NCBI GenBank assembly: GCA_947476735.1
Contig: CANJRZ010000001.1
Location: 17,288-81,287, forward strand
Length of the DNA stretch: 64,000 nt
Reading direction: 5' to 3'
DNA from: Sphingomonadaceae bacterium
GTDB taxonomy: Bacteria; Pseudomonadota; Alphaproteobacteria; Sphingomonadales; Sphingomonadaceae
Position numbers and translations under genes: made by a program
The notes under the pieces: generated by a model
Told to the model about the DNA's origin: nothing
The model's database searches: none
The model's input: only the letters and a program-made list of their open reading frames with translations
Shown: positions 6,329-46,763 of the stretch, in pieces
Layout of the letters: the number at the start of each line of letters is the position of its first letter
How positions within the stretch are numbered: position 1 is the first letter of the stretch

Positions 6329-6344
6329 AGTGAGTTCCTTCAGT

Positions 6345-7274: not shown

Positions 7275-7278
7275 GATA

Positions 7279-8097
7279 TTAACGGCCGGTCCACCGGGGC
7301 GGGCGCTTTTCGTTGAATGCTGCGATGCCTTCGATGGAATCCTCGGTCAGCGCCAGGGTCGCCAGCTGCGTTTCCATGAACGAGATCGCCTGTTCTATCG
7401 TCATGTTCCGCGTAGCCCTCAACGCATGTTTGCCACGGCGGATGGCAGTGGGTGATTTGCCGACCAGCCGGTCGATCAGCCAGTCAGTCCTGGCGTCCAG
7501 TTCTCCGATCGGCGTCACATAATTGACAAGGCCGATGTCCAGCGCTTCCGCGGCGCCAATCGGTTCGCCGGTCAGGCACAGTTCGGCAAATTTGCGGCGC
7601 GAGATAAGGCTCTGCAGCAAGGCGGAGACTTGCATCGGAAACATGCCGATCTTGACTTCCGGCAGGCCGAAAAGCGCATTATCACTCGCGACCGCCATGT
7701 CAGCCATGGTCAGGAGCCCCATGCCGCCGGCCATGCAATGGCCGTTTATGCGCGCGATGATCGGCAAATCGCAGCCATAAGCGGCGCGCAGAAGGTTGCC
7801 GAGAGGCGTGGTGGGCGCCGAGTGATCGAACTCGAAAGTCTTCGAATCGGGCTTGAGGTCGCCGCCGGCGCAGAAGGCGCTATCGCCCGCCCCGGTGAGC
7901 ACGATGGCGCGCAACCCGCTCACTTCGCGCGCGCTGACGATCCCGACGGCAAGCCGGGTCAGGACGTCATCGTTGAGCGCGTTGCGAACCTTCTCGCGAT
8001 TGATCGTCAACCAGCGGACAATGCCGCGATCCTCGACCAGCACGCTGTCGTCGGCCGGGCCGGGGTGGGGAATGATAGGGGCCGGTGTCGCGGTCAT
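7279..8097 (-). CDS. Enoyl-CoA hydratase/isomerase
   Basis: AFCAGGDL, GHCMAGGMGL, FGLPEVKIG. Start moved to ATG 8097 to avoid overlap with the upstream ACAD. Confidence 0.9.
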   Translation of the reverse strand: MTATPAPIIPHPGPADDSVLVEDRGIVRWLTINREKVRNALNDDVLTRLAVGIVSAREVSGLRAIVLTGAGDSAFCAGGDLKPDSKTFEFDHSAPTTPLGNLLRAAYGCDLPIIARINGHCMAGGMGLLTMADMAVASDNALFGLPEVKIGMFPMQVSALLQSLISRRKFAELCLTGEPIGAAEALDIGLVNYVTPIGELDARTDWLIDRLVGKSPTAIRRGKHALRATRNMTIEQAISFMETQLATLALTEDSIEGIAAFNEKRPPRWTGR

Positions 8098-8110
8098 GGC
8101 GCTGCCCGGT

Positions 8111-9277
8111 CTAATAGGATCGTGGCAGGCCGAGCACATGCTCGGCGATCTGCGCCAGGATCAGGTTTTCGGAAATCGGCGCGATCCGCATGAGGCGCGC
8201 CTCACGGAAGAGCCGCTCGACATGGAATTCCGCAGCATAGCCATAGCCACCATGGGTCTGGACGGCGCGGTCGGCTGCCTGGAACCCGGCTTCGCCGGCG
8301 AGAAACTTCGCGGTATTTGCTTCGGTCCCGCAAGGGTAACCATTGTCGTACAGCCAGGCCGCTTTTTCGGCCATCAGTTCGGCGGCGGTAAGGCGTGTAT
8401 GCGAATCCGCCAGTGGCAGCTGAATGCCCTGATTCTGGCCAATGGGCCGCCCGAAAACGCGCCGGTCGTTGGCGTAGCTCACCGCGCGGGACAACGCTGC
8501 GCGACCGACACCGATCGCCTCGAAGGCGACGAGGATACGCTCGGGATTGAGACCGTCGAGCAGATAGTGGAAGCCTCGACCTTCTTCGCCGACCCGGTCC
8601 TCGACCGAGACATGGAGATTGTCGAAGAAGACGTCGTTGGATGCGACGGCATGCCGGCCTAGCTTGCGGATCGGATTGATCGTGACGCAGGCGGGGTCAA
8701 GGTCGGCGAGGAACAGGGTCATGCCGTCGGTGCGCTTCTTGCAATCCTGCAGCGGCGTCGTACGGGTCAGCAGGAGAACCTTCTGGCATTGCGCCGCCTT
8801 GGTCAGCCAGGTCTTGCGGCCATTTATCACATAATGATCGCCGTCGCGCACAGCGCGTGTGGTGATACGGGTGGTATCTGTGCCGGCATCGGGCTCGGTC
8901 ACGCCGAAGCAGATGTTCAGCTTTCCGGACACCACCTCGGGCACATATTTGTGCCTCATCGCATCGCCGCCATGTTTGATCACGGGGTTGATGCCGAACA
9001 TGCTCAGATGGACAGCGCTTGCGCCGTTGAGGCCCGCGCCGGTCTCGCACACGGTTCGCAGGACGATGCCGGCCTCGGCAATCCCGAGGCCGGACCCGCC
9101 GAGTTCCTCTGGAATGGCGATGCCGAGCAATCCGGCTTCCGCGAAGGCATCGTAGAAAGCGGCAGGATATTCGTGCTTTTCGTCGACCGACAGCCAATAG
9201 TCGTCGGGAAAGGAGCGCATGAGCGCCTTCACCGTGTCTATGATGGCCTCGTGGTCGGGGTTCGCGCTAAAATCCAT
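8111..9277 (-). CDS. Acyl-CoA dehydrogenase
   Basis: FGVTEPDAGTD, INGRKTW, QTHGGYGY; start ATG 9277. Confidence 0.92.
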   Translation of the reverse strand: MDFSANPDHEAIIDTVKALMRSFPDDYWLSVDEKHEYPAAFYDAFAEAGLLGIAIPEELGGSGLGIAEAGIVLRTVCETGAGLNGASAVHLSMFGINPVIKHGGDAMRHKYVPEVVSGKLNICFGVTEPDAGTDTTRITTRAVRDGDHYVINGRKTWLTKAAQCQKVLLLTRTTPLQDCKKRTDGMTLFLADLDPACVTINPIRKLGRHAVASNDVFFDNLHVSVEDRVGEEGRGFHYLLDGLNPERILVAFEAIGVGRAALSRAVSYANDRRVFGRPIGQNQGIQLPLADSHTRLTAAELMAEKAAWLYDNGYPCGTEANTAKFLAGEAGFQAADRAVQTHGGYGYAAEFHVERLFREARLMRIAPISENLILAQIAEHVLGLPRSY

Positions 9278-9366
9278 GGGATACCTTGATCTGGCATGAG
9301 GCGCGCTGTCTCGCGGCCCCGGGGAGCACAAATAAAAAAGGGCTATGAAACTGTCAACAATATAAT

Positions 9367-9385
9367 CTATAAACATTGATTACTG
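9367..9385. promoter_or_regulatory. Weaker copy of the 19-bp motif in the divergent ACAD/CaiB promoter
   Basis: ctataaacattgattactg; shares TGATTACT with the 868-888 site, while the left half is degenerate. Confidence 0.35.
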
Positions 9386-9400
9386 ATTTGGAGAGATGGA

Positions 9401-10633
9401 ATGTCCGCTGGCCAATGTGATCCTGGGGCTGAGCTCCCCCTCACCGGTATTCGCGTTCTCGATATCAGCCGGGTGCTGGCCGGCCCATTATGCACGCAGA
9501 TGCTGGGCGACCTGGGTGCCGATGTCATCAAGGTCGAGCCCTGCGAGGGGGACGAAAGCCGGGGATGGACACCCAGGCGGGGCGACACCGGCACGGCCTT
9601 TCTGTCGGTAAACCGGAACAAGCGGAGCATGACCATCGACCTGCGCAATCCTGCCGGGCTGGACATTGTGCGCCGGCTGGCAATGGATTCGGATGTGTTC
9701 GTCGAGAGCAACAGCACCGGCGCGAGCGAGCGACTGGGCCTGGGTTTTGAAAGCCTGCGCGCGATCAACCCCGCTTTGGTCTATTGCAGCATCACCGGCT
9801 TCGGCGCGGAGGGGCCGCTCAAGGAGGCAAAGGGCTATGACCTCATGCTGCAGGCCTTTTCGGGTATTCTCGATCTGACCGGTGAGCCGGGCGGTGCGCC
9901 TGCGCGGAGCCCTTTCTCGCCGATCGACCAGGCGACCGGCCACCATGCCACGATCGGTATCATGGCCGCGCTGATGCGTCGGGTGCGTACGGGCAAGGGC
10001 GGGCTGGTCGAGGTGTCTTTGTTCGAGAGCGCGGTCCAGTTCACCTCTTATCTGCTGCAATCCTATTGGGAAACCAGAAAGGTCCCGCCCAAGGTCGGCT
10101 GCGAACATCCGTCGCTGGTTCCTTATCAGAGTTTCAGGACAGCCGATCACAATCTGCTGATCGGCATCGCAAATGATTCGTTATGGCGCCGCTTCTGCGC
10201 GGCCTTCGGTATGGATGACCTTGCCCACGATCCGCGCTTCGCGTCGAATCAATCGCGCGTCGAGCGCCGCGTGGAGACGGTGGCGCTCGTCCAGGACGCA
10301 GTGGCGAACTGGTCGTCCGAGGCGCTTCTGGCACGGTTGATCGAGATTGGCGTTCCCAGCGCGCCGATAAACAGCATCGCCGATCTCGCGGCCCATCCGC
10401 ACACCCACGCCCGGGGGATCGTCGCCGACTATATCCACCCACAGCTCGGCGCCCTGAAGGCCGTTGTCCAACCCGTGCAGTTCGACCGCCGCGTACGAAA
10501 GGCGGGAGCGCCGCCGCCCGCGCTCGGCGAGCATAACACCGAGATACTGCTTCAACTCGGTATGTCGAATAACGCGATTGAGGAGCTGCTCCAGTCCGGC
10601 GCACTGGGACGAAAGAGTCTCGCCGATGGTTGA
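9401..10633 (+). CDS. CaiB/BaiF class III CoA transferase
   Basis: GIRVLDISRVLAGP..LGDLGADVIKVE, NRNKRS, catalytic Asp in SPIDQATG. Confidence 0.93.
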   Translation: MSAGQCDPGAELPLTGIRVLDISRVLAGPLCTQMLGDLGADVIKVEPCEGDESRGWTPRRGDTGTAFLSVNRNKRSMTIDLRNPAGLDIVRRLAMDSDVFVESNSTGASERLGLGFESLRAINPALVYCSITGFGAEGPLKEAKGYDLMLQAFSGILDLTGEPGGAPARSPFSPIDQATGHHATIGIMAALMRRVRTGKGGLVEVSLFESAVQFTSYLLQSYWETRKVPPKVGCEHPSLVPYQSFRTADHNLLIGIANDSLWRRFCAAFGMDDLAHDPRFASNQSRVERRVETVALVQDAVANWSSEALLARLIEIGVPSAPINSIADLAAHPHTHARGIVADYIHPQLGALKAVVQPVQFDRRVRKAGAPPPALGEHNTEILLQLGMSNNAIEELLQSGALGRKSLADG

Positions 10634-11651
10634 TCAGTCTGCCAGCGCGGCCGTGAACCGGCAGATCGTCTTTTCATCGATCCCCGATGGTCTGCCCACG
10701 CTCGACAATTTCACATTGGTCGAAAGCCCCGTTCCCGAGCCTCAGGACGGCCAGATACGCGTCCGGCATCTGTTTCTGGGCCTGTCCCCCTCGGCCCGGC
10801 TGCGCATGGCGGGCGACAGCGATTATGGCGCGGGCATGCCTCTTGGAAAGCCGGTTCAGGGTCAGGCCGTCGGTGTTGTCGATATATCGCGTAACCCGGC
10901 CTTTCAGCCGGGCGATCATCTCGTGGTTAACGGTGGCTGGCAAAGCTATTCGGTCACCAGCGGGCGAGGCGCGACGCGCGTCGATGCCGATCTGGCGCCG
11001 CCCTCCTGCGCGCTGGGCCTGCTCGGGACTTCTGGTATGACCGCCTACGTCGGAATGCTCGATATCGGACTGCCAAAGGCCGGAGAAACCGTCGTCGTCT
11101 CGGCAGCATCGGGGTCGGTCGGCTCGGTTGCCGGACAGATCGCCAAATTGAAGGGATGCCGCGTGGTCGGCGTCGCCGGAGGCGCGGAGAAATGTGATTA
11201 CGTCACCAAGACACTGGGCTTCGACGCCTGCGTCGACCATCGTGCTCCGGGCCTGCCACAACGCCTCGCCGCCGCCTGTCCCGAGGGCATCGACATATAT
11301 TTCGAGAATGTCGGAGGTGCAGTACGCAGCGCGGTATGGCCGCTGTTCAATGATTTTGGGCGTGTGGTCCTTTGCGGGATGATCTCGGACTATCAGAATC
11401 GTGAGGGCCTGACGGGACCGGACTGGTTCCCGATCCTGACCCACCGGCTCACCATCCGTGGCTTCCTGCTGCGCGATCACGCCGATCGTCGTGATGCGTT
11501 CCTGGCCGACATGGCCGATTGGTATCGTAGCGGCATGGTTCGCTACCGGGAGGACGTTGCCGATGGGCTGGAGCAGGCGCCCGCGGCCTTCATCCGGCTG
11601 CTGCGGGGGGATAATTTTGGCAAGACACTGGTGAGGCTGGCCGATGGCTGA
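10626..11651 (+). CDS. NADP-dependent alkenal/enone reductase (CurA/PGR-like MDR)
   Basis: GTSGMTAYVG, VSAASGSVG, GIDIYFENVGG, NFGKTLV; start ATG 10626 overlaps the previous stop. Confidence 0.9.
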   Translation: MVDQSASAAVNRQIVFSSIPDGLPTLDNFTLVESPVPEPQDGQIRVRHLFLGLSPSARLRMAGDSDYGAGMPLGKPVQGQAVGVVDISRNPAFQPGDHLVVNGGWQSYSVTSGRGATRVDADLAPPSCALGLLGTSGMTAYVGMLDIGLPKAGETVVVSAASGSVGSVAGQIAKLKGCRVVGVAGGAEKCDYVTKTLGFDACVDHRAPGLPQRLAAACPEGIDIYFENVGGAVRSAVWPLFNDFGRVVLCGMISDYQNREGLTGPDWFPILTHRLTIRGFLLRDHADRRDAFLADMADWYRSGMVRYREDVADGLEQAPAAFIRLLRGDNFGKTLVRLADG

Positions 11652-12366
11652 CACGCATACCGACATCGACGGCGCAGTCGCGACCGTCACCATCGACCGG
11701 CCCCCGGTCAATGCGCTCACCATCGACAGTTATCGCGAGATAACCGGGGTTTTCAAGGTATTGGGGGCTCGCGAAGACATAGGGTGCATCATCCTCGTCG
11801 GCGCGGGCACGCGCGCCTTTTGCGCCGGCTTCGATTTCCGCCAGTTCGCGGCGGCAGGCGCCAAGGAAGACGATCCTGCCCGCCCGGCGATATTGCGCGG
11901 CATGTTCGAAGCGATCCGCAACGCACCGGTGCCGGTCATCGCGGCCGTCAACGGTCCTGCGATCGGCGCCGGCTGCGTTCTGGCGGCGGTGTGCGATATC
12001 CGCATCGCAGTCGAGACCGCCCGTTTTGGCCTGCCGGAGATCGATTTCGGCCGGATTGGCGGGGCGGCCTATCTGGCTCCGCTGCTGTCGTCCGGTTGCC
12101 TGCGGCGCATGGTCTTCACCGGCCAGCCGCTGTCCGCCCGCCAAGCCCTGCAGGAAGGACTGGTCGGGGAGATCGTCGCACCCGAAGCGCTGCTGGAAAC
12201 CTCGCTGTCGCTGGCGACCGTCATCGCCGGAAAGGCGGGGCCTGCGGTGCGGCAGATGAAGGCTGCGCTCGATGGGCTTGCCGGTCTGTCGGTGACCGAG
12301 GGATATCGCCTCGAGCAGGAACATTCGCTGCGATTGCGCGATGCGCTGTCGGGTGGAGCCGCATGA
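11644..12366 (+). CDS. Enoyl-CoA hydratase/isomerase
   Basis: AFCAGFDF, GPAIGAG, FGLPEI. Confidence 0.85.
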   Translation: MADTHTDIDGAVATVTIDRPPVNALTIDSYREITGVFKVLGAREDIGCIILVGAGTRAFCAGFDFRQFAAAGAKEDDPARPAILRGMFEAIRNAPVPVIAAVNGPAIGAGCVLAAVCDIRIAVETARFGLPEIDFGRIGGAAYLAPLLSSGCLRRMVFTGQPLSARQALQEGLVGEIVAPEALLETSLSLATVIAGKAGPAVRQMKAALDGLAGLSVTEGYRLEQEHSLRLRDALSGGAA

Positions 12367-13487
12367 TGCTCGCTGGCATTCGCGTGATAGAGATGGGCCA
12401 GAATGTCGCCGGGCCGCATGCCGCGCAGATTCTCTCCGATCTCGGCGCCGAGGTGATCAAGGTGGAGCGCCCCGGCGGCGAGGAGGGGCGCAAGCTCGGC
12501 CCTCCCTTCGTCGGCGACGACGCGGCCTGGTTCTACCAGATCAATCGCGGCAAGAAATCGGTGACGGTCGATCTCAGGGATGCCGCGGATCTCGCGCATT
12601 TTGTCGATCTCATCGCCGGTGCGGATGTGTTCGTCCACAATATGCGCCCCGGCGTGCTGGCGGGATTCGGCCTTGACGCCGCGACGTTGCGGGGACGTTT
12701 TCCGCAGTTGATCTACGCCGACATCGGAGCCTTTGGAGGCCATGGCCCGATGGCCCGGCGGCCGGGCTACGAACTGCTGATGCAGGCTTATGGAGGGTTG
12801 ATGAGCATCACGGGCGGTGCCGATGCGCCGCCCACACGGATGGGCCCGTCCATCGTCGATCTCGGCACCGGGATGTGGGCCGCGATCGGGATATTGTCGG
12901 CGCTGGTGCGGCGGGGCGCGACCGGTCAGGGCGCGCATGTCGAGGCGTCTTTGCTGGAGACGGCGCTGGGCTTTTCGGGAATCCACATCGTCAATTATCT
13001 CGCCGCCGGCACGATGCCCGAACGCAGCGCCGATGGTTTTGCCGGGCTGGCACCCTATGGCGGCATGCAATGCGCGGATGGGGTGTTGATCGTCGGCGCG
13101 GGCAATGATCGCCTGTTCGCGAAGTTGGCCGACCTGATCGAGCGCCCCGACTGGAAAAGCGATCCGCGATTCGCGACCAACGTGGCGCGGGTCGCGAATC
13201 GTGCGGAGCTGCATGCGGAACTGGACCCCATCTTCGCACGCGGGGCGGTCGCCGACTGGGCGGCGCGCTTGGAGGGCGCCGGAATACCCAATGCTCCCGT
13301 CCGAACGATCCCCGAACTTGTCGATGACGAGCAGGTTCTTGCGCTCGGAATGATCTCGCGGCTGAATCAGGCGGGAAATCCGGCAGTGCTGGGCCTGCCG
13401 CTGTCGTTCGACGGCGCCCGTCCAGCGCTCGATCAACCAGCGCCTCGTCCCGGCGAGCAGAATGACGAGCCGTGGGGCCATTCCTGA
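12363..13487 (+). CDS. CaiB/BaiF class III CoA transferase
   Basis: GIRVIEMGQNVAGP..DLGAEVIKVE, NRGKKS, SIVDLGTG; ATGA-coupled start at 12363. Confidence 0.92.
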   Translation: MMLAGIRVIEMGQNVAGPHAAQILSDLGAEVIKVERPGGEEGRKLGPPFVGDDAAWFYQINRGKKSVTVDLRDAADLAHFVDLIAGADVFVHNMRPGVLAGFGLDAATLRGRFPQLIYADIGAFGGHGPMARRPGYELLMQAYGGLMSITGGADAPPTRMGPSIVDLGTGMWAAIGILSALVRRGATGQGAHVEASLLETALGFSGIHIVNYLAAGTMPERSADGFAGLAPYGGMQCADGVLIVGAGNDRLFAKLADLIERPDWKSDPRFATNVARVANRAELHAELDPIFARGAVADWAARLEGAGIPNAPVRTIPELVDDEQVLALGMISRLNQAGNPAVLGLPLSFDGARPALDQPAPRPGEQNDEPWGHS

Positions 13488-13535
13488 TCATAACCTCGAT
13501 CAGTCAGGCTGATCGCGATTGCCTTGTAACTCATA

Positions 13536-13554
13536 AAGTAATATATACGAACTA
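13536..13554. promoter_or_regulatory. Candidate 19-bp operator upstream of the ADH gene
   Basis: aagtaatatatacgaacta; 13/19 to the reverse complement of the 14777 site; AT-rich intergenic region. Confidence 0.45.
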
Positions 13555-13637
13555 ATAACGATGCACTGCATGCTGGGGACACCGCAAGGTTACTGTCCCT
13601 CGAGCAGGCTGGGCAGTGGCGAGGAGATGCACCGGAC

Positions 13638-14732
13638 ATGAAGGCAGCCCTGGTAAAACAGCTCGACGGAATATTCCGCGTCGAAGACGTCGAAATCGCG
13701 CAGCCGATCGGGAAGGAGGTTCTCGTCCAGGTGCGGGCGAGCGGCCTCTGTCATTCGGACCTGCACCTGGCCCAAACCGACTTCGGCATCCCGCTGCCCG
13801 CAGTCTATGGCCATGAGCTGTCGGGCGTGGTGGAGGCGATCGGCCCCGAGGTCACCGAGTTCCAGGTCGGCGACCACGTCGTCGCATCGCTCATCCAGTT
13901 CTGCGGCCACTGTTTTCCGTGCCATGACGGCCGCACCTATCAGTGTGACCACCCGCACGAAACCGTGCGCGACGAGGCCGCCGCGCCGCGCCTGCGCTAT
14001 CAGGACAGTCCACTCGGCCAGGCGTTCGGCACGGGCGGCTTTGCCGAGAAGGCCCTTGTTCACCAGAACCAGCTCGTTGCCATTCCTAAGGAAATGCCCT
14101 TTGCGCAAGCGGCGCTGCTGGCCTGTGGAACGGTTACAGGCGCCGGCGCGGTTCTCAACACGGCCAAGGTAAGGCCCGGCGAATCGGTGGCGGTCATCGG
14201 CATCGGCGGTGTCGGTCTGAACGTCATTTCGGGCGCTGTTCTGGCCTCGGCGGGGAGGATCATCGCGATCGACAAGCAACCGGCCAAGGAAGCCCTCGCC
14301 CGTAAGTTCGGCGCGACCGATTTCATCAACCCGGATGATGGCGATCCCGTAGCAGTCCTGAAAGACCTGATCCCGCGTGGTGTAGACCACGCGTTCGAAG
14401 TAATCGGGCTCAAGTCGACTGCCGAAATCGCCATCAAGATGCTGCGCACCGGAGGCACGGCGTATATGATCGGCGCGCACAAGCCGGGGTCGGCGATCGA
14501 CCTCAATGTCCAGGACGACCTCGTCGGACTGCAGAAATCGGTTCGCGGCGTTTATATGGGGTCCTCGAACTTCAAACACGATATTCCAATGTACGCGAAC
14601 CTCTATCTGCAGGGCCGGCTCAATCTCGATGATCTCCTGTCGCGCGAAATCGACATCTCGGAAATCAACGACGCCTATCGAGAGCTTGAAAGTGGCATGA
14701 TCGCCCGCAGCGTGATCACGTCTTTCCGCTAG
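13638..14732 (+). CDS. Zn-dependent alcohol dehydrogenase
   Basis: GLCHSD, YGHE, structural-Zn cysteines (CGHCFPC..C), GIGGVG. Confidence 0.93.
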   Translation: MKAALVKQLDGIFRVEDVEIAQPIGKEVLVQVRASGLCHSDLHLAQTDFGIPLPAVYGHELSGVVEAIGPEVTEFQVGDHVVASLIQFCGHCFPCHDGRTYQCDHPHETVRDEAAAPRLRYQDSPLGQAFGTGGFAEKALVHQNQLVAIPKEMPFAQAALLACGTVTGAGAVLNTAKVRPGESVAVIGIGGVGLNVISGAVLASAGRIIAIDKQPAKEALARKFGATDFINPDDGDPVAVLKDLIPRGVDHAFEVIGLKSTAEIAIKMLRTGGTAYMIGAHKPGSAIDLNVQDDLVGLQKSVRGVYMGSSNFKHDIPMYANLYLQGRLNLDDLLSREIDISEINDAYRELESGMIARSVITSFR

Positions 14733-14776
14733 TCATCAAGGCCGGCAGGAGCGTGTTATCCCTTGCCAAAAATATA

Positions 14777-14795
14777 TAGTACGTATTATGTACTA
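14777..14795. promoter_or_regulatory. Palindromic candidate operator TAGTAC-N7-GTACTA upstream of the LLM gene
   Basis: tagtacgtattatgtacta, with perfect 6-bp arms, next to TTGCCA at 14763. Confidence 0.6.
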
Positions 14796-14852
14796 ACTGA
14801 ATCCGGCGGGACCGATAGAGACCGTGCGCCACGAACAGGAAAAGGACTGCAG

Positions 14853-15965
14853 ATGACCATCAATCTCGGAATGTTTGCGATGCCGGTCCATGCGCCCGGA
14901 AAGGATTATCAGCAGTCGCTGCGCGAGGATCAGGAATGTGTAATCCTGGCCGATCAGCTAGGCTTCACCGAATTCTACATGGGCGAGCATCACACGTCCG
15001 GTATCGAGACGGTCACCAGCCCGCTCATCTTCTTCGCCAGCATCGCGCGCCTTACCAAGAATATCCGGCTCGGCAGCGGCGTGCTCAATCTGCCGCAGAT
15101 GCATCCGATCTCGGTCGCCTCGAACGTGGCGATGCTCGATCAGATGACCGACGGCCGCTTTATATTCGGTGGTGGTCCCGGCACGCTCGTCACCGATGTC
15201 GAGGCGTTTGGATCGGTGCCGATGGACGTGCGCGGGCGGATGGTCAAGGAATCGATGGATTTCGTGAAGAAGCTCTGGACATCCGAGCCTCCGATCGAGC
15301 TCAAGGGCGAGTTCTGGACGATCAAGATCAAGGACAAGGTTATTCCGAAATTCCGCGTCGGCTGGATGCCGAAGCCGAAGCAGCAGCCGCATCCGCCTTT
15401 CGCGTTGACCATGGTGTCGCCCAATTCATCGACCGCCAGAGCGGCGGGCGCGGAAGGGTGGATCCCGATCTCGGCTAACTTCGTGAACCGGCGCTATCTG
15501 CGCGGGCATTGGGAATCTTATGCCGAGGGCTGCGAATCGGTCGGTCGAAAGGCCGATCCCTCGACCTGGCGCGTTGCCCGTTGCTGCCTCGTCACGGAGA
15601 GTGACGCCGAAGCGGAGGACTATATCGCGGATCCCGACAACGGCATCAGCTTCTATTATTCGTTCATGCGGCACATCGCCGAGGTCGGTCGCGGTGCGCT
15701 GTATATGCTCAAGCCCGATCTCGACATGACCGACGAAGAAGCGACGGTCGACAAGATCGTGCCGTCCCAGGTAATCTATGGCAGCCGCAAGACGGTGCTC
15801 GAAAAGCTTGTCGCTCTGCGCGAGGAGATCGGTCATTTCGGCACGCTGATCATGACGGCGCATGATTGGGATCGGCCCGCCATGTGGCGGAGGTCGATGG
15901 AGATGATGGCGCAGGACGTGATCCCGCAATTCTCGGAGCATGTGAGGGACAGCGTGCCGGCCTAA
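14853..15965 (+). CDS. Luciferase-like (LLM) flavin-dependent monooxygenase
   Basis: FYMGEHH, IRLGSGV, LDQMTDGRFIFGGGPG; start ATG 14853 with AAGGA SD. Confidence 0.9.
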   Translation: MTINLGMFAMPVHAPGKDYQQSLREDQECVILADQLGFTEFYMGEHHTSGIETVTSPLIFFASIARLTKNIRLGSGVLNLPQMHPISVASNVAMLDQMTDGRFIFGGGPGTLVTDVEAFGSVPMDVRGRMVKESMDFVKKLWTSEPPIELKGEFWTIKIKDKVIPKFRVGWMPKPKQQPHPPFALTMVSPNSSTARAAGAEGWIPISANFVNRRYLRGHWESYAEGCESVGRKADPSTWRVARCCLVTESDAEAEDYIADPDNGISFYYSFMRHIAEVGRGALYMLKPDLDMTDEEATVDKIVPSQVIYGSRKTVLEKLVALREEIGHFGTLIMTAHDWDRPAMWRRSMEMMAQDVIPQFSEHVRDSVPA

Positions 15966-16032
15966 CCGGCAAGCCAGACGCCCGCATCCCTGCGCCTCGC
16001 CGCAGAAAGCCGGCCCATGACAGGACATAGCC

Positions 16033-17559
16033 GTGACAACGCATATCACCCGACCGGATATCTCTATCGCCCATGCCGACCGCTTCTTCATCGGGGGCGA
16101 ATGGGTGGATCCGTCGAGCTCGGCGATGATCGAGGTCATCAGTTCATCGACCGAAGAGCCGATCTATCGGGTCGCGGAAGCGCAGGTCGCCGACATAGAC
16201 CGTGCGGTAGAGGCGGCGCGCACCGCTTTTGACAGCGGCCCCTGGACTGAGATGACCCACCGGGAGCGGGCTCGCCATCTGCGTGCGATCGGTGCCGGAG
16301 TTCGTAAGCGTGCCGCCGAACTCGGCGCCATCTGGGCGGCCGAGATGGGCGTGACTTATGCGATAGCCGAGGCGATGACGCTTGGGGTGGGCGACGTGTT
16401 CGACTATTATGCCGGCCTCGGAGACAGTTTTCCGTTCATCGAGCGCCATAAACCGGCGGGCGGCAATGTCGGGTATCTGGTGCGTGAGCCGGTCGGCGTG
16501 GTGGGTGCGATCATCCCCTGGAACGCTCCGCTAACGCTGCTCAGCTACAAGGTGGCGCCGGCTCTGATCGCGGGCTGCACAATCATTCTTAAGGCCTCGC
16601 CGGAGGCCCCCGGCGTCCCGCTCGTGTTCGCCGAAATCTGCAAGGCGGCGGGCCTGCCCGATGGGGTGATCAACGTCCTTACCGCGGATCGCGAGGTCTC
16701 GGAAGCGCTTGTTCGACATGCTGGGGTCGACAAGATCGGATTCACCGGCTCGACCGCCGCAGGCCGGCGCATCGCATCGATATGTGGCGAACGGATAGCG
16801 CGCTTCACGCTCGAGCTCGGTGGCAAGTCCGCCGCCGTGGTTATGGACGATTACGATGTCGGCGCGGCGGCCGACGCCATATCGAGCATGGCTTCGCTGA
16901 TGACCGGTCAGGTCTGTTCGTCGCTGACCCGGGTGATCGTCTCGCAGAATCGCCATGACGCGATGGTCGAGGCGCTGGCCGCGTCGTTCAGCCGGACCAG
17001 GGTCGGCGATCCATTCGATCCTGCGGTGCAGATGGGGCCGCTCGCGATGGAGCGCCAGCGTGACCGGGTCGAGCAGTTGATCGCCCGCGGCTGTGCAGAT
17101 GGCGCGACACTCGCGACGGGGGGAGCGCGTCCTGCGCATCTCAACCGCGGCTATTATATCGAGCCGACAGTGTTCGGCGGCGTCCACAACGACATGGCGA
17201 TCGCCCGCGAGGAGTTTTTTGGACCGGTGCTGAGCGTAATCCCGGTGACGGGGGAGCACGAGGCGATCTCGATCGCAAACGACAGCATTTACGGCCTCAA
17301 CGCGTCAGTGTTCACGCATGATAATGATCGCGCCTTCGCGGCGGCCCGAAAGCTTCGCTCGGGAACGGTGGGACATAATATCTTCCGTACCGATTTCAGC
17401 ATTGCGTTCGGAGGGTTCAAGCAGTCGGGCATGGGCCGCGAAGGCGGTGTCGAGGGCCTGCTGCCCTATCTCGAATCCAAGACGGTCATCCTCGATGGGG
17501 AGCCGTCGACACTTCGCGAAAGCCTGGCCCCGTCATCGGGCTGGGCTGACGGCGGATAA
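16033..17559 (+). CDS. Aldehyde dehydrogenase
   Basis: IIPWN, FTGST, LELGGKS, catalytic GQVC, EEFFGPV. Confidence 0.93.
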   Translation: MTTHITRPDISIAHADRFFIGGEWVDPSSSAMIEVISSSTEEPIYRVAEAQVADIDRAVEAARTAFDSGPWTEMTHRERARHLRAIGAGVRKRAAELGAIWAAEMGVTYAIAEAMTLGVGDVFDYYAGLGDSFPFIERHKPAGGNVGYLVREPVGVVGAIIPWNAPLTLLSYKVAPALIAGCTIILKASPEAPGVPLVFAEICKAAGLPDGVINVLTADREVSEALVRHAGVDKIGFTGSTAAGRRIASICGERIARFTLELGGKSAAVVMDDYDVGAAADAISSMASLMTGQVCSSLTRVIVSQNRHDAMVEALAASFSRTRVGDPFDPAVQMGPLAMERQRDRVEQLIARGCADGATLATGGARPAHLNRGYYIEPTVFGGVHNDMAIAREEFFGPVLSVIPVTGEHEAISIANDSIYGLNASVFTHDNDRAFAAARKLRSGTVGHNIFRTDFSIAFGGFKQSGMGREGGVEGLLPYLESKTVILDGEPSTLRESLAPSSGWADGG

Positions 17560-17637
17560 AGATAGATCGCGATAATGGTTTAGTTCGGATCCCTGCGGTG
17601 GCCATCCAACCCCGCCGATCCGATGATGGAGATAGTC

Positions 17638-18930
17638 ATGACTGAGACCACGGCTGTTTTTGATGTTCCGAAAGCTCCCAAATCCGTCGTCGCAACGGTG
17701 CTCAATCCGGAATGCTACGCGGATGATCGCATTTACGAGGCTTATGCCTGGCTGAGGGCAAACAGCCCCGTAGCCTTGGTTGAGCATGACGATTTCGATC
17801 CATTTTGGATCATCACCAAATATGACGACGTGCGCGCCGTCGAACTCAACAGCACCGTATTCCGCAACAGTGTCCGCTCCTACAATCTGTGCGATCGCAA
17901 GAGCATCGAACATGTCCTAAAGATCAATGATGGCAGCCCCAATCTGATCGCGTCGCTCGTCGCGATGGATGCACCTCAGCACTCGGTCTACCGCAGGCTG
18001 ACCCAGAACTGGTTTCAGGGCACCAATCTGAAGAAACGCGAAGACGAAATACGCGTGATCGCCAGGCAGGCCGTCGCCAACATGATCGCCATCGGCCCGG
18101 AAGTCGATTTCGTCAGCGACCTCGCAACCGAATATCCGCTGCGCGTGATCATGAATATTCTGGGCGTCCAGGAAGCCGACTGGCCGCTGATGCTGCGGCT
18201 GACACAGCAGAATTTCGGCACGAAGGATCCTGAACTCAGCGGCGCCGCAGAGCCGCTGAAAGAAGAGCATTATGCCAATTTCATGCACGACATGGTCAAG
18301 GCATTTTCCACCTTCTTCACCGAGGTCAGCAACGACCGCCGGCGCAGCCCAAAGGAAGATCTCAGCTCAATCATCGCCAACGCCACGTTCGACGGTGCAC
18401 CGATCCCTTATGATATCGAGATGGGCTATTATATCACCATTGTTACCGGCGGGCATGACACGACGTCCTCCGCGACAGCGACGGCGGTGTGGCAGCTGGC
18501 TGAAAAGCCTGAGCTTCTGGCACGGATCAAGGCCGACCCGACGCTGATCCCGCATCTGGTGGACGAAGCGGTCCGGTGGAGCAGCCCGGTCAAGCATTTC
18601 ATGCGAACCGTTGGTGAAGACGCGACCATTGGCGGCCAGCCGGTCCGCGTGGGCGATTGGGTCATGCTGTGCTATGGTTCGGCCAATCGCGACGAGGATG
18701 TCTTCCCGCCGGAATTCACCGTGGAACGCACGCCGAACCGCCATCTCGCCTTCGGGATCGGGCCGCATCTGTGCCTGGGCCAGCATCTCGCAAAGATGGA
18801 AATGCGGATATTGTTCGAAGAGTTGCTGCCGCACATCAAGTCGATCAACCTGCGGGGCGTCCCCAAGCAGAGCGTCGACTGGTTCGTAAATGGGCCCAAG
18901 ACGGTGCCCATCACCTTCGAATACGAATAG
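17638..18930 (+). CDS. Cytochrome P450, CYP108-like
   Basis: I-helix GGHDTT, EAVRW, heme motif [10 protein letters not shown]. Overall resemblance to P450terp is from recall. Start at ATG 17638 with GGAG SD. Confidence 0.92.
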
Positions 18931-18967
18931 GCGGCGGGTGCCGGATTTTGCCCGTGCGGGTCAAGGC

Positions 18968-19765
18968 ATGAGCCGCTTCGCGGGAAAGGTCGCGATCGTG
19001 ACCGGCGGCGCATCCGGAGTTGGCGAAGCGCTCGTCAGCCTGATTGTGGCGGAAGGTGGCGTCGTCGCCGTCGCCGACACTAACCCGGAGCGTGGCGATG
19101 CCCTCGCCGAATCCCTGGGGACCGACCGTGTCCTGTTCGATATCTGTGATGTCGCCGATGAGACGGCGGTATCGCACTTCGTCGATATGGTCGGCAAACG
19201 CTGGTCGGGTGTCGACTATCTCGTAAACAATGCCGGCGTCGTCGGGATGGGCTCCACGATGGATGTCGATGCATCGGCTTGGCGCCGCATCATCGATGTC
19301 GACCTCTCGTCGGCCTTCCATTTCTGCCGGTCGACGATACCGCTGATGGCAGGCCGCGATGGTGCGTCGATCGTCAATACCGCGTCGGTGTCGGGGTTGT
19401 TCGCCGACTATGGCATGGCCGCGTACAATGCCGCGAAGGGAGGGCTCATCAACTATAGCCGGAACCTGGCGCTTGATCTGTCCAGGCACGGCATCCGGGT
19501 CAATGCCGTCTGCCCTGGCGCGGTCGATACGCCGATGTTCGACGGCGTTCGCGCGGTCCCTTCGTTGCATGATGCCTATGTGCGGGCGATCCCGCTGGGG
19601 CGTCTCGGCCGTGCGGAGGAAGTGGCGAACGTGATTGCCTTCCTGTTGTCTGCCGATGCCTCCTATGTCACCGGAGCGGTGATCACCGTCGATGGCGGCA
19701 CGACCTGCGGCACATCCTTCCCAGACCTGAACGCCCACATGGCTGCGCTCAGAGAGAGCTATTGA
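18968..19765 (+). CDS. SDR oxidoreductase
   Basis: [17 protein letters not shown]. Confidence 0.92.
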
Positions 19766-19780
19766 TATGGAGCGGTTGAG

Positions 19781-20551
19781 ATGAGGTCTGTTGCACTCGT
19801 TACCGGGGCCGCTGGCGATCTGGGCGCCGCCAGCGCCGTTGCGCTTGCCCGGGCGGGCTTCGCGGTCGTCATGACCGATTTGAACAGCGACGCTGTTCAG
19901 CGGCTGTGCGCTAGTCTGCCCGGCGACGGCCACAGCGCGTTCGCTCTGGACGTCACGTCTGAAATGTCTGTCGCCGATGTCTTCGGCCGAGTCGAAGAAC
20001 AGGTCGGGCCGGTCAGCGTGCTGGCACATCTCGCCGGGATCATCGACGGCGCGGGCCCCATGAACGGCATCCTGGTCGCCGATCTGGACATGGCCGTCTG
20101 GGACAAGGTGTTTGCAGTCAATGCGCTCGGCACCTTCCTGTGCGTGCGCGAAATGGTGCGCCGTCGGCGGCACCTTGCTGTCGAACATGGGCGGATCATC
20201 GCCTTTTCCTCGCTCGCCGGGCAGATGGGTGGCTATGTTGCGGGCGCGGCTTATGCTGCGTCGAAGGCTGCGATCATTGGCTTCACCAAGAATATCGCAC
20301 GCGAAATCGCGCCGCTTGGCATTACTGCCAATGTTGTCGCGCCCGGGGCCATCGATTCGAGCATGAACCGCCTGGCAATTGGGGCCCCCCGCGAAAGCCC
20401 CGCAGGGAATTCGGCGGGTGTCGGCACTATCCCGATGGGCCGTAAGGGCACTTCTTCGGAGGTCGCTGACCTGGTCGCTTTTCTCGCGTCTCCGCAAGCA
20501 GCCTATATTACCGGTCAGACGCTCGCCATCAATGGCGGCAGCTATATGTAG
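19781..20551 (+). CDS. SDR oxidoreductase
   Basis: TGAAGDLG, YAASK. Confidence 0.9.
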   Translation: MRSVALVTGAAGDLGAASAVALARAGFAVVMTDLNSDAVQRLCASLPGDGHSAFALDVTSEMSVADVFGRVEEQVGPVSVLAHLAGIIDGAGPMNGILVADLDMAVWDKVFAVNALGTFLCVREMVRRRRHLAVEHGRIIAFSSLAGQMGGYVAGAAYAASKAAIIGFTKNIAREIAPLGITANVVAPGAIDSSMNRLAIGAPRESPAGNSAGVGTIPMGRKGTSSEVADLVAFLASPQAAYITGQTLAINGGSYM

Positions 20552-20709
20552 CGGTCATCGGCACCGGAAAGCGAAACTGCCGATAAGAAGGGAGTCTGAG
20601 CGACAGTGATATTGCAGGACAGTTCCGCGCCGCTCCGAGGCCTGTCGTTCGGCGGCAAGTCCATCTGCTCCGGCGGCTTCGGTCCATTGGGGAGTCGCTG
20701 AGCACCGCC

Positions 20710-21465
20710 ATGGCCGACCTATTGAACCTGGCGGGTAAAACCGCCTTCGTTACCGGTGCGTCGGGCGGCCTCGGCGCGCATTTCGCGGCGGTACTGGCAA
20801 GTGCGGGCGCTGCGGTGATCGTTGGCGCGCGGCGCGAGGACGCGCTGGCCGATGTGGCTGCGCGGATCCGAGCGGCGGGCGGCGCATGCACGACCGCGAC
20901 GCTCGACATATCGAGCGCCGCGAGCATCACCTCAGTCGAGCCGCTGCTGGCGAAGGTCGACATTCTCGTCAACAATGCCGGCATCGTGATCGAGAAGCCG
21001 TTCCTCGAACAGAGTGAGGCCGATTGGGACGCCGTGGTCGATACTAACGCCAAGGGCATGTTCCTGCTGACCCAGGCGGTCGCGCGGGCGATGCGAGCGC
21101 GGGGCGCCGGTGGATCAGTGATCAACATCGCCTCGATCCTGGGACTGCGCCAGGGCGGCATGGTAATGACCTATGCAGTGTCCAAGGCGGCAGCGATCCA
21201 GTTCACCAGGATCGCGGCGCTTGAACTGGCCCGCTTCGGAATCCGCGTCAACGCGATCTGTCCCGGCTATATCGCCACCGACCTCAATAGCGCGTTCTGG
21301 GAGACCGAATCCGGCAAGGCGATGCTGAAGCGCATCCCCCAGCGGCGCCTGGGCGCATTGCCCGAACTCGACGGCCCGCTGCTGCTGCTGGCCTCGGACG
21401 CCTCGTCTTACATGACCGGATCGGTGATCGTTGCCGACGGCGGCCATCTCGTCAGCACCCTGTGA
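20710..21465 (+). CDS. SDR oxidoreductase, LvaD-like (candidate 4-oxoacyl-CoA reductase)
   Basis: TGASGGLGAHFA, YAVSK, C-terminal LDGPLLLLASD..DGGHLVSTL resembling LvaD (recall). Confidence 0.85.
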   Translation: MADLLNLAGKTAFVTGASGGLGAHFAAVLASAGAAVIVGARREDALADVAARIRAAGGACTTATLDISSAASITSVEPLLAKVDILVNNAGIVIEKPFLEQSEADWDAVVDTNAKGMFLLTQAVARAMRARGAGGSVINIASILGLRQGGMVMTYAVSKAAAIQFTRIAALELARFGIRVNAICPGYIATDLNSAFWETESGKAMLKRIPQRRLGALPELDGPLLLLASDASSYMTGSVIVADGGHLVSTL

Positions 21466-21478
21466 ACGGAGAGATATT

Positions 21479-22630
21479 TTGAGCGAACGGGCTGAGGCGA
21501 TTGCCGCGAAGGTCGAGGCCTTCGTCCGCGAGACAGTCTTCCCCTATGAGAAGGACCCGCGCGCGACGTCGCATGGCCCGACCGACGAACTGGTCCAGGA
21601 GATGCGGGCCAAGGCGGGGGCGGCGGGGGTGCTGACCCCGCATATCCTGTCTGACGGATCGCACCTCAACCAGCGCGAGACCGCGATCGTTCTGAAGAAG
21701 TCCGGACTGTCCCCGCTGGGGCCGCTCGCGGTGAACACCATGGCGCCCGACGAGGGCAATATCTACCTGCTCGGCAAGGTCGGGACGCCCGAGCAGCAGC
21801 GCCGCTTCCTCGACCGGCTCGTCTCGGGCGAGAGCCGCTCGGCCTTTTTCATGACCGAACCGGCGAGCGAGGGTGGCGCGGGCTCCGACCCATCGATGAT
21901 GCGGACGACCTGCCGGCTCGACGGCAATCACTGGGTGATCGACGGGCGCAAGGCGTTCATCACCGGGGCGCAAGGCGCGAAGGTCGGCATCGTTATGGCG
22001 AAGGCCGAGGAGGGCGCGTGCATGTTCCTCGTCGATCTGCCCGATCCGGCAATCCGGATCGAGCGGCTGCTCGAGACGATCGACAGCTCGATGCCGGGCG
22101 GCCATGCGGTCGTCGCGATCGACAATCTGCGGGTGCCGGCCGACCAGATGCTTGGGGCGGCGGGCGAGGGCTTCAAATATGCCCAGGTGCGGCTGAGCCC
22201 GGCGCGGCTGTCGCACTGTATGCGCTGGCATGGCTGCGCGACCCGGGCACAGGAGATCGCGACCGACTATGCCTGCCGGCGCGAGGCCTTCGGCAAGAAG
22301 CTGGTCGACCATGAGGGGGTCGGCTTCATGCTCGCCGAAAATCTGATCGACCTGAAGCAGGCCGAGCTGATGATCGACTGGTGCGCCGATGTCCTCGACA
22401 GCGGGTCGCTCGGCACGGTCGAAAGCTCGATGGCCAAGGTGGCGGTGTCGGAGGCGCTCTACCGGGTGGCCGATCGCTGCGTCCAGGTGATGGGCGGTAC
22501 CGGCGTCTCGGGCGACACGGTGGTCGAGCAGATCTTCCGCGAGATACGGGCGTTCCGGATTTATGACGGGCCGACCGAGGTCCACAAATGGAGCCTCGCC
22601 AAGAAGATCAAGCGGGATCACGCCCGGTGA
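21479..22630 (+). CDS. Acyl-CoA dehydrogenase, LvaC/ACAD10-11-like
   Basis: DPRATSHGP, APDEGN, FFMTEP..GSDP, RIYDGPTEVH; TTG start at 21479 with GGAGAG SD. Confidence 0.9.
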   Translation: MSERAEAIAAKVEAFVRETVFPYEKDPRATSHGPTDELVQEMRAKAGAAGVLTPHILSDGSHLNQRETAIVLKKSGLSPLGPLAVNTMAPDEGNIYLLGKVGTPEQQRRFLDRLVSGESRSAFFMTEPASEGGAGSDPSMMRTTCRLDGNHWVIDGRKAFITGAQGAKVGIVMAKAEEGACMFLVDLPDPAIRIERLLETIDSSMPGGHAVVAIDNLRVPADQMLGAAGEGFKYAQVRLSPARLSHCMRWHGCATRAQEIATDYACRREAFGKKLVDHEGVGFMLAENLIDLKQAELMIDWCADVLDSGSLGTVESSMAKVAVSEALYRVADRCVQVMGGTGVSGDTVVEQIFREIRAFRIYDGPTEVHKWSLAKKIKRDHAR

Positions 22631-23688
22631 GCGGGACCGGGCAAGCGGAGAATGAGGGCACGACTCCGGTCCGCCCGGGCTTCGCTTTCGACGAGGCGAG
22701 CCTCGCCAGCTGGATGTCGGAGCATGTACCGGGCTTCGAAGGGCGCTTGAGCGTCGAACAGTTCAAGGGTGGCCAGTCCAACCCGACTTACAAGTTGCTG
22801 ACGCCGCGGAGGACATATGTGCTTCGACGCAAGCCGCCGGGACAGCTTCTCAAAGGTGCCCATGCCGTCGAGCGCGAGGCGCAGGTGCTGACCGGCCTTG
22901 AGAAAGCGGACTTCCCGGTGGCCCACGTCCACGCCCTGTGTACCAACGATGCGGTGATCGGTAGTTGGTTCTATGTGATGGACATGGTCGATGGGCGGGT
23001 GTTCTGGGACGCCGCCTTGCCGGATGTGCCGCGCGAACATAGGGCCGCTTATTACGACGCGATGAACGCGACGATCGCGGCGCTTCACAGGGTCGATTAT
23101 GAAGCGGTGGGGCTCGGTGACTACGGCAAGCCCGGCAATTATTTCGAACGGCAGATCGCCCGCTGGTCCAGGCAATATCTCGACGATGCCGAAGCGGGAC
23201 GGGATGTGAACATGGACCGCCTGATAGAATGGCTCCCCGCCAACGTCCCACCCGGTGACGATACCAGCATCGTCCATGGCGACTTCCGTATCGATAATAT
23301 GATTTTCCACCCGACCGAGCCGCGCATCCTTGCCGTCCTCGATTGGGAACTCTCAACGCTCGGTCATCCGCTCGCCGACTTTGCCTATCACGCTATGATG
23401 TACAGAATGCCGCCGCATATCGTCGCCGGTCTGGGCGGCGCTAACCTTTCCGACCTGAGCCTTCCGAGCGAGGGTGACTATGTCGCCGCCTATTGCACGC
23501 GCACGGGGCGGGACGCGATCTCGAATTACAGCTTCTATCTCGCTTTCAATTTCTTCCGCCTCGCGGCGATCTTCCACGGCATCAAGGGCCGGGTGATCCG
23601 AGGCACTGCGGCGTCGGCGCAGGCGGCGGAACGCGCCGCTCTTTTTCCGGAACTGGCTGCAATCGCGTGGTCGCAGGCTACCGCATAG
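22627..23688 (+). CDS. APH-family phosphotransferase, ACAD10/11 kinase-domain-like
   Basis: GGQSNPTY, VLRRKPPG..AHAVERE, VHGDFRIDN, LDWELSTLG; GTGA overlap with the ACAD stop. Confidence 0.92.
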   Translation: MSGTGQAENEGTTPVRPGFAFDEASLASWMSEHVPGFEGRLSVEQFKGGQSNPTYKLLTPRRTYVLRRKPPGQLLKGAHAVEREAQVLTGLEKADFPVAHVHALCTNDAVIGSWFYVMDMVDGRVFWDAALPDVPREHRAAYYDAMNATIAALHRVDYEAVGLGDYGKPGNYFERQIARWSRQYLDDAEAGRDVNMDRLIEWLPANVPPGDDTSIVHGDFRIDNMIFHPTEPRILAVLDWELSTLGHPLADFAYHAMMYRMPPHIVAGLGGANLSDLSLPSEGDYVAAYCTRTGRDAISNYSFYLAFNFFRLAAIFHGIKGRVIRGTAASAQAAERAALFPELAAIAWSQATA

Positions 23689-46612: not shown

Positions 46613-46647
46613 GTCCAATATCAATGATGCCGTATCTGATATTGGAC
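46613..46647. promoter_or_regulatory. 35-bp palindrome GTCCAATATCA-N13-TGATATTGGAC, with a third half-site at 46658-46668
   Basis: Perfect 11-bp arms in the divergent Rieske/SDR promoter; recurs at 54968 and 57681. Confidence 0.8.
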
Positions 46648-46763
46648 GGATATGGTTGGATATTGCACTAGTCGGTTGCGAACGGTGCCATCTGAAGTTT
46701 CGATGGTCCGGTTATATTGTCATCCGGCCCGTCCGGTGCGGCGTTGTGGGGGAATTTGGGAGC

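Follow-up and report, generated by a model that had tools for sequence, protein, structure and literature searches.

A Sphingomonadaceae bacterium contig (CANJRZ010000001.1 of assembly GCA_947476735.1) was analysed over a stretch of 64,000 nucleotides, positions 17,288 to 81,287, hereafter the window. Its G+C content is ~62%, and at positions 20710-23688 it harbors a trio of genes coding for a short-chain dehydrogenase/reductase (SDR), an acyl-CoA dehydrogenase (ACAD) and a kinase. These are considered here in relation to the Lva proteins of Pseudomonas levulinate catabolism and to the mammalian ACAD10 and ACAD11 enzymes. The three genes are as follows:

20710-21465, forward strand: SDR gene, 251 amino acids with the C-terminus LDGPLLLLASDASSYMTGSVIVADGGHLVSTL; LvaD-type, predicted NAD(P)H-dependent 4-oxoacyl-CoA reductase.
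21479-22630, forward strand: ACAD gene, 383 amino acids; LvaC-type (subfamily S2), predicted FAD-dependent 4-phosphoacyl-CoA phosphate eliminase forming a 2-enoyl-CoA.
22627-23688, forward strand: kinase gene, 353 amino acids; single-subunit APH fold of the ACAD10/11 type, putative ATP:4-hydroxyacyl-CoA 4-O-kinase.

The ACAD gene most likely starts at the TTG codon at position 21479 rather than at position 21431, as given in the list of open reading frames (ORFs), since a GGAGAG sequence lies 6 nt upstream of this codon and the resulting 13-nt gap between the SDR stop and the ACAD start is repeated in Rhizorhabdus wittichii RW1 and Sphingobium chlorophenolicum L-1. The GTG start codon of the kinase gene at position 22627 overlaps the TGA stop codon of the ACAD gene (GTGA). 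The motifs DPRATSHGP and APDEGN are found within the ACAD, and GGQSNPTY and RRKPPG within the kinase. The sequence-only reading from which this analysis set out had described three tightly coupled genes with a GTGA overlap, and both this arrangement and all of the peptide strings it quoted were recovered in the three ORFs, which lie on one strand. The same gene trio, equally spaced, is present in R. wittichii RW1 and S. chlorophenolicum L-1, and the arrangement is therefore not a matter of chance.

Two Pseudomonas loci, L170 and L172, served as reference for the Lva proteins. They were found by a search for DUF6285 (PF19802), the domain by which LvaB-type genes were sought, in the genus containing kinase relatives of ~35% identity. 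A divergent sigma54/PrpR-type PAS regulator gene precedes genes for an APH protein, a DUF6285 protein (118 amino acids), an ACAD (390 amino acids), an SDR (255 amino acids), an AMP-ligase and an SSF symporter. This order agrees with that of the Pseudomonas levulinate operon, lvaR and then lvaABCDE..G (Rand et al. 2017, as summarised in PMC6692424). The L170 proteins are labelled Pseudomonas aeruginosa in public records, with further members of their clusters in P. chlororaphis and P. putida.

The trio ACAD contains the N, M and C Acyl-CoA_dh domains of Pfam, with mouse ACAD11 (ACAD domain, 8V3U; e-value: 9e-54) as its best PDB match, alongside human ACAD11 (e-value: 5e-48) and the M. abscessus protein 4HR3. 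ACAD10/11 and LvaC are distinguished from ordinary ACADs by a catalytic aspartate (D753), an HCMR motif (H634, R637) and an upstream arginine (R626), with R626, H634 and R637 of ACAD11 binding the 4-phosphate (PMC12440821). In a pairwise alignment, residues R238, R243, H246, R249 and D363 of the trio ACAD correspond to R626, R631, H634, R637 and D753 of mouse ACAD11, the first four being supplied by the stretch VRLSPARLSHCMRW and D363 being located in RIYDGPTEVH. The canonical ACAD 4U83 carries N, R, I, Q and E at these five positions, while in the ACAD encoded at 8111-9376 of the window the first four are G, R, V and E, and the aspartate position has no acidic residue. The catalytic aspartate of the trio ACAD thus replaces the glutamate of canonical ACADs, with 4U83 and the paralogues in the same genome showing glutamate or no match. 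The conserved proline of APDxGN, P463 of human ACAD11, which in ACAD10/11 and in the Pseudomonas and Burkholderia proteins is embedded in NCxAPDTGNME (PMC11342911, Fig. S7), is likewise present (NTMAPDEGNIY).

Three ACAD types were delineated by their motifs. Type S1 is defined by IAQGRLGPGRIHHCMR, FNCxAPDTGNME and LADGPDEVH, which are the same in mouse ACAD11 and 4HR3; type S2, that of the trio ACAD, by YAQVRLSPARLSHCMRW, VNTMAPDEGN and RIYDGPTEVH; and type S3 comprises the ACADs of DUF6285-linked clusters, with the motif ARLTHCMRW. In a tree that includes canonical ACADs, an HCMR-bearing superclade was recovered (support 87/90), as were S1, with mouse ACAD11 and 4HR3 inside it (100/99*), and S3 (99-100*). 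The trio ACAD is placed in S2, which joins the four lva-operon ACADs at 100*, and thus falls outside S1 (ACAD10/11/Burkholderia), to which S2 is a sister subfamily. It shares 57% amino acid identity with the LvaC-position ACAD of L170 (motifs DPRQDSHGP, APDEGN, ARLTHCMRW and RIYDGPSEVH), 35% with mouse ACAD11 and 31-34% with bacterial S1 members. The trio ACAD is as such predicted to be a phosphate-eliminating enzyme of the LvaC type (S2).

The UniProt accessions Q88G01, Q88K54 and Q88EH6 lie far apart in numbering although lvaA to lvaE are adjacent genes. They are the accessions given for the 'LvaA', 'LvaC' and 'LvaE' proteins of P. putida, respectively, in PMC11342911. The motif printed there for 'Pseudomonas LvaC' (FNCSAPDTGNMET) is of the S1 type, whereas in the lva-type operon analysed here the ACAD has LNIHAPDEGNIHL. 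The comparison in that study may have drawn on best-BLAST paralogues rather than on the proteins of the operon itself.

The trio kinase is a member of the APH family (PF01636; e-value: 1.2e-50), matches PDB entry 3DXP (e-value: 8.6e-121) and the ACAD11 kinase domain (e-value: 6e-75), and shares 41% amino acid identity with the latter domain of mouse. It falls far under the NCBIfam cut-offs for APH(3') and Mph enzymes (34.1 vs 205, 23 vs 450 and 20.7 vs 550 bits). In the ACAD11 kinase, D220 and N225 are catalytic and arginine residues contact the CoA moiety (PMC12440821). In a pairwise alignment with ACAD11, the trio kinase motif HGDFRIDN provides D219 and N224, while R83/E84 and R175 are also conserved. 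Residues D219, N224 and R175 equate to D220, N225 and R176 of PMC12440821 by a constant offset of one (HMMER index), and R83, which has no exact match to R86 of that study, is taken to be the arginine beside the alpha-C glutamate. The two arginine positions, R83 and R175, are occupied by glutamine and leucine in the LvaA-position kinase of L170, with which the trio kinase shares 26% identity.

Relatives of the kinase were identified in 72 of 300 Pseudomonadota genomes surveyed, and those with 44-57% identity mostly adjoin an S1 ACAD that is 31-34% identical to the trio ACAD. Two deep clades make up the kinase tree. Clade A (100/100*) contains every DUF6285-linked kinase, including that of the lva operon. 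Clade B consists of B1, with PDB entry 9O56, the kinases of Pseudomonas kinase-SDR-histidine-phosphatase loci and two S1-linked kinases, and B2, comprising S1-linked kinases together with 3DXP and the ACAD11 kinase domain. Kinases linked to S2, that of the trio included, nest within B2 (100/99*). The PDB matches and this placement bear out the earlier assignment to the ACAD10/11 kinase-domain type, as opposed to the LvaA type, and a 4-hydroxyacyl-CoA 4-O-kinase activity is predicted on this basis.

Pseudomonas kinases of 34-36% identity (family f41) were considered as LvaA and rejected, their loci consisting of histidine phosphatase, kinase and SDR genes with neither an ACAD nor a DUF6285 gene. 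In these loci (L059-L063), the histidine phosphatase gene is followed, after a gap of ~0.8 kb, by the kinase and SDR genes; the kinase is of type B1 and ~52% identical to 9O56, and no ACAD gene lies within 5 kb. They resemble 'lva cluster 2' of P. citronellolis, which has a histidine phosphatase in place of LvaB. In an alphaproteobacterial genus (g15; genomes G040, G104 and G180), the reading frames around the kinase extend over 733-741 amino acids, which suggests a bacterial kinase-ACAD fusion like ACAD11.

The trio SDR shows the Pfam domains adh_short (e-value: 2.8e-51) and adh_short_C2, the motif TGASGGLG of the TGxxxGxG cofactor type, 'ARR' after beta-2 and a catalytic YxxxK, while no NCBIfam equivalog model reached its cut-off. 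It shares 49.6% identity over 248 amino acids with the LvaD-position SDR of L170, the tail of which reads LDGALLLLASDAG...VVDGGHLCSSL. A clade of 21 rows in the SDR tree (99*) unites the trio SDR with S2-linked, S3-linked and lva-operon SDRs and with a paralogue on contig C99 of the same genome, and leaves out 13 other SDRs of this genome as well as those linked to S1 or B1 systems. The genome's other SDRs are at most 39% identical to that of the trio, with the C99 paralogue as the exception. The likeness of the SDR and ACAD to LvaD and LvaC that had initially been proposed is thus upheld by the identities to L170 and by strongly supported clades for both proteins. We infer that the trio SDR is a member of the LvaD clade with 4-oxoacyl-CoA reductase activity.

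The C99 paralogue (locus L162; 4685-5437, reverse strand) is 56% identical to the trio SDR and lies inside the LvaD clade. It is divergent from a gene for a luciferase-like monooxygenase (5576-6643, forward strand), which is 32% identical to the one encoded at 14763-15965 of the window, and no ACAD or kinase gene is found nearby.

In agreement with the claim that the trio operates with no LvaB helper, DUF6285 was found nowhere in the genome, and neither an LvaA-type kinase nor an S1 ACAD was found elsewhere in it (94% complete assembly), so that the trio represents its only system of this kind. Among the same 300 Pseudomonadota genomes, a DUF6285 search returned seven loci with the order SDR, ACAD, distant APH kinase and DUF6285, the SDRs of which are 48-58% and the ACADs (S3) 37-41% identical to those of the trio. 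At locus L081, an LvaA-type kinase is fused to DUF6285 (486 amino acids). The 'LvaB' matches obtained when loci were scored by tblastn were artefacts of this fused query and were discarded.

The tree placements of the ACAD, kinase and SDR indicate that the trio is, as judged from its protein sequences, a hybrid, in which an LvaD/LvaC-type pair is joined to an ACAD10/11-type kinase and LvaB is lacking. The earlier description as a 'split ACAD10/11' is hence retained for the kinase but not for the ACAD, which is LvaC-type and belongs to a sister subfamily. The order SDR-ACAD-kinase is kept also in the DUF6285-type (S3) clusters and in basal betaproteobacterial S2 loci. Most simply, this order would be ancestral, and the LvaA/LvaB kinase of an LvaD-LvaC gene pair would have been replaced by one of the ACAD10/11 clade.

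All residues needed for the 4-phosphoacyl-CoA chemistry that had been proposed are present in the trio, and a three-step route can be envisaged by homology. The SDR would use NAD(P)H to reduce levulinyl-CoA or another 4-oxoacyl-CoA to the corresponding 4-hydroxyacyl-CoA, as LvaD does. The kinase would then phosphorylate the 4-hydroxyl with ATP, forming the 4-phosphoacyl-CoA, and would do so alone, with no LvaB partner, like the ACAD10/11 kinase domain and the Burkholderia pseudomallei enzyme. Finally, the ACAD, with FAD, its catalytic aspartate and its Arg/His/Arg pocket, would bind and expel the 4-phosphate, releasing phosphate and a 2-enoyl-CoA, possibly part-hydrated to the 3-hydroxyacyl-CoA, which would enter beta-oxidation. 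No CoA ligase, transporter or regulator is encoded within the module itself, and free acids must therefore be activated from elsewhere in the cell. We consider it probable (about 0.78) that the trio constitutes a self-contained module by which 4-oxo and 4-hydroxy acyl-CoAs are passed into beta-oxidation through phosphorylation and phosphate expulsion.

A pattern scan of species-representative genomes identified at least 592 S2-like ACADs, pointing to a strongly conserved LvaC-type subfamily. The top 120 database matches of the trio ACAD (83-95% identity) carry no label beyond 'acyl-CoA dehydrogenase' or 'Butyryl-CoA dehydrogenase'. Locus counts are based on the best 80 of the at least 592 S2-like relatives (73-84% identical), which derive from Sphingomonadales, Rhodobacterales, Hyphomicrobiales, Caulobacterales, Acetobacteraceae, Burkholderiales and Nevskiaceae, and the neighboring genes of which were scored by tblastn. 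A B2 kinase (at least 55% identity) is encoded at 46/80 loci, nearly always directly 3' of the ACAD gene, and the full trio in the same order at 8/80 loci, across Alpha-, Beta- and Gammaproteobacteria. Linkage to the kinase switches at least 20 times along the S2 tree. S2 ACADs without a linked kinase were considered as a sign of kinase-independent function, but this was rejected, as a B2 kinase is encoded elsewhere in all twelve of the kinase-orphan genomes tested.

The following additional features surround the trio:

9401-20551 region, forward strand, same strand as the trio: upstream cluster with CoA-transferase genes (9401-10633 and 11784-13487) and genes for a zinc-dependent alcohol dehydrogenase, a luciferase-like monooxygenase (14763-15965), an aldehyde dehydrogenase, a P450 and two SDRs.
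20552-20709, forward strand: spacer of 158 nt that separates the trio from the last SDR gene of the upstream cluster; the conserved module has its left edge here.

Downstream of the trio are a small helix-turn-helix gene, a ParB-like gene and the junction of a serine-recombinase island, ~1.5-2 kb away. On the reverse strand at 5399-9376, an operon coding for an ACAD, an enoyl-CoA hydratase, an HMG-CoA-lyase-like protein and a BKACE protein is divergent from the CoA-transferase/oxygenase cluster, and the window's left half as a whole resembles a single catabolic region acting on an alcohol, a ketone or a branched acid. The sequence GATATTGCA at 20608-20616, upstream of the trio, resembles a half-site of an 11+13+11 palindrome at 46613-46647 and also matches at 46659-46667 and 47427-47435 (3 matches vs 0.42 expected). 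As a shared operator it was set aside as weak, being a lone half-site without a palindromic partner.

The SDR gene is present in 17/19 genomes of the same genus, in which DNA homology begins at the SDR start (query ~910, equal to window position 20709). Homology to R. wittichii RW1 is limited to positions 20728-23677, and the RW1 trio is flanked by Gcw_chp/porin genes and a GAF-guanylate cyclase gene; that of S. chlorophenolicum adjoins beta-oxidation genes and a TetR gene. A second S2 ACAD, 92.7% identical to that of the trio, is encoded on contig C250 of the same genome (5204-6364; locus L010), with no SDR gene upstream and a SnoaL-like gene, not a kinase gene, downstream. Longer related metagenome contigs (L175 and L176) show a Gcw_chp gene followed by genes for the ACAD, SnoaL, a P450 and two amidohydrolase_2 proteins, with a guanylate cyclase gene near. 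The Gcw_chp and guanylate cyclase flanks of the C250-type locus are those of the full trio in RW1, and the SDR and kinase genes may therefore have disappeared from the 'native' locus on C250, the window holding a relocated or acquired full copy. Alternatively, C250 may be a co-binned strain contig (assembly contamination: 3.5%).

It had also been proposed that the trio processes gamma-oxo or gamma-hydroxy acyl-CoAs made by the upstream oxygenases. It would then be a final stage dedicated to the upstream cluster, removing the group that the oxygenases introduce. The twelve genes between 9401 and 23688 are all on one strand, and a promoter and terminator scan of the 158-nt gap revealed no sigma-70-like promoter and no strong terminator. 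For these reasons, the trio may be co-transcribed with the upstream cluster in this one genome. The upstream CoA-transferases could provide the activation step that the trio is missing. However, the junction is not conserved: homology in the 17 same-genus genomes starts at the SDR, the neighbors in RW1 and S. chlorophenolicum are unrelated, and, with the exception of one aldehyde dehydrogenase, none of the upstream genes co-occurs above 45% identity at the 80 trio-related loci. The proximity of the mobile-element junction furthermore suggests that the adjacency may stem from rearrangement. A functional link with the upstream oxygenases would therefore be specific to this genome and finds no support in conservation, and we regard this dedicated role as quite improbable. 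A third explanation, by which the ACAD would be an ordinary acyl-CoA dehydrogenase translationally coupled by chance to an unrelated small-molecule or antibiotic phosphotransferase, fits the generic database names ('acyl-CoA dehydrogenase', 'Butyryl-CoA dehydrogenase' and 'phosphotransferase family') and the family-level Pfam matches. It appears highly implausible given the aspartate in place of the catalytic glutamate and the HCMR/Arg cluster, which distinguish the ACAD from the canonical ACADs of its own genome, the low scores against the APH(3') and Mph models, and the recurrence of ACAD-kinase linkage across classes.

Several observations count against the self-contained module. Identity between the trio ACAD and ACAD11 is only 35%, and the literature searched reports no assay of an S2 member under that name; in place of the KT2440 Lva proteins, the lva reference used here was identified through its operon architecture in Pseudomonas aeruginosa-labelled records; no kinase gene lies within 6 kb at 34/80 S2 ACAD loci; and the SDR is an optional partner, found at the same position in only 8/46 kinase-linked S2 loci. 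The SDR is accordingly best viewed as accessory, and its step is the least secure of the three. Indeed, the kinase and ACAD might act as proposed with the SDR serving another purpose, either inverting (S)- to (R)-4-hydroxyacyl-CoA via the 4-oxo compound or oxidizing the 3-hydroxyacyl-CoA downstream. This would be compatible with the roughly fourfold preference of the ACAD10 kinase domain for the R isomer (PMC11342911), the lack of an NCBIfam equivalog and the C99 paralogue located beside a monooxygenase gene with neither kinase nor ACAD. On the other hand, the LvaD-position SDRs encoded in lva-type operons fall in the same 99* clade as the trio SDR, LvaD is reported to reduce levulinyl-CoA to 4-hydroxyvaleryl-CoA (PMC6692424), and S2 and S3 loci, as well as some from Beta- and Gammaproteobacteria, keep the three genes in the order SDR-ACAD-kinase. 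We consider this alternative role of the SDR unlikely, and favor the module in which it acts as the 4-oxoacyl-CoA reductase.

P. putida (Lva), B. pseudomallei and mammals (ACAD10/11) all provide known examples of the chemistry of such a pathway, and Rand et al. (cited in PMC6692424) had noted homologues of lvaABCD in Alpha-, Beta- and Gammaproteobacteria. The literature searched makes no mention of DUF6285 or of a 4-hydroxyacyl-CoA kinase by name, and the lva papers found describe no such hybrid. The combination of parts is nevertheless a modest variant of known chemistry and not new biology. Its value lies in that a natural hybrid suggests that LvaB is needed only by kinases of the LvaA clade and that kinase and eliminase are interchangeable. 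It may be speculated further that gamma-phospho-elimination is a mix-and-match toolkit, in which the LvaC-type eliminase (S2), 73-93% identical across Alpha-, Beta- and Gammaproteobacteria, is indifferent to the source of the kinase and often stands alone with the kinase supplied in trans. If this tentative notion were true, the route would be a housekeeping one of general use for 4-oxo and 4-hydroxy acids, lactones and products of lipid peroxidation among them, and not specific to levulinate. As the S2 proteins carry only generic database labels, the assignment also offers a concrete correction to their annotation, and the three genes are compact parts for engineering the use of levulinate or gamma-valerolactone.

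Among known systems, the Pseudomonas lva operon (L170) contains the nearest tree relatives of the trio SDR and ACAD. The ACADs share the motifs DPRxxSHGP, APDEGN, ARL(S/T)HCMRW and RIYDGP(T/S)EVH, and the predicted sequence of intermediates, from 4-oxo through 4-hydroxy and 4-phospho to enoyl-CoA, would be the same. The trio differs in its kinase, which is not LvaA-type (26% identity; other deep clade), in the lack of LvaB/DUF6285, the LvaE ligase, the LvaR regulator and the LvaFG transporter, and in its gene order (D-C-kinase as opposed to A-B-C-D).

With mammalian ACAD10/11 (PMC12440821, PMC11342911; 8V3U, 8V3V), the trio has in common a kinase that is 41% identical to the ACAD11 domain and retains the catalytic Asp and Asn, with two arginines at or next to the residues reported to contact the CoA moiety. 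The ACAD11 residues R626, R631, H634, R637 and D753 are kept in the trio ACAD, and no helper subunit is present in either. In contrast to ACAD10/11, the activities of the trio reside on separate polypeptides, an additional SDR is present and a HAD domain is absent, while the trio ACAD is S2/LvaC-type, as opposed to S1, and 35% identical.

A split kinase-ACAD pair is also found in B. pseudomallei, where the kinase Q63VL0 and the ACAD Q63VL1 replace the ACAD10 domains in vitro (PMC11342911), so that a split pair without LvaB is of an already known kind. The trio shares this split organization and the lack of LvaB with the B. pseudomallei pair, and its kinase matches the Ralstonia/Cupriavidus-type kinase structure 3DXP at 8.6e-121. 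Among the 300 Pseudomonadota genomes sampled, kinases that are paired with this ACAD type share 50-57% identity with that of the trio. The Burkholderia-type pairs differ in that the partner ACAD is S1 (31-34% identical to the trio ACAD), the kinase gene mostly precedes the ACAD gene or the arrangement is ACAD-kinase-histidine phosphatase-SDR, and the linked SDRs belong to another SDR clade. The DUF6285-linked clusters of Alpha- and Gammaproteobacteria (L073-L081), finally, possess a two-part LvaA/DUF6285 kinase and ACADs of the separate subfamily S3, but resemble the trio in the order SDR, ACAD, kinase, in SDRs of the same clade (48-58% identity) and in ACADs (37-41% identity) that share the motif ARLTHCMRW.

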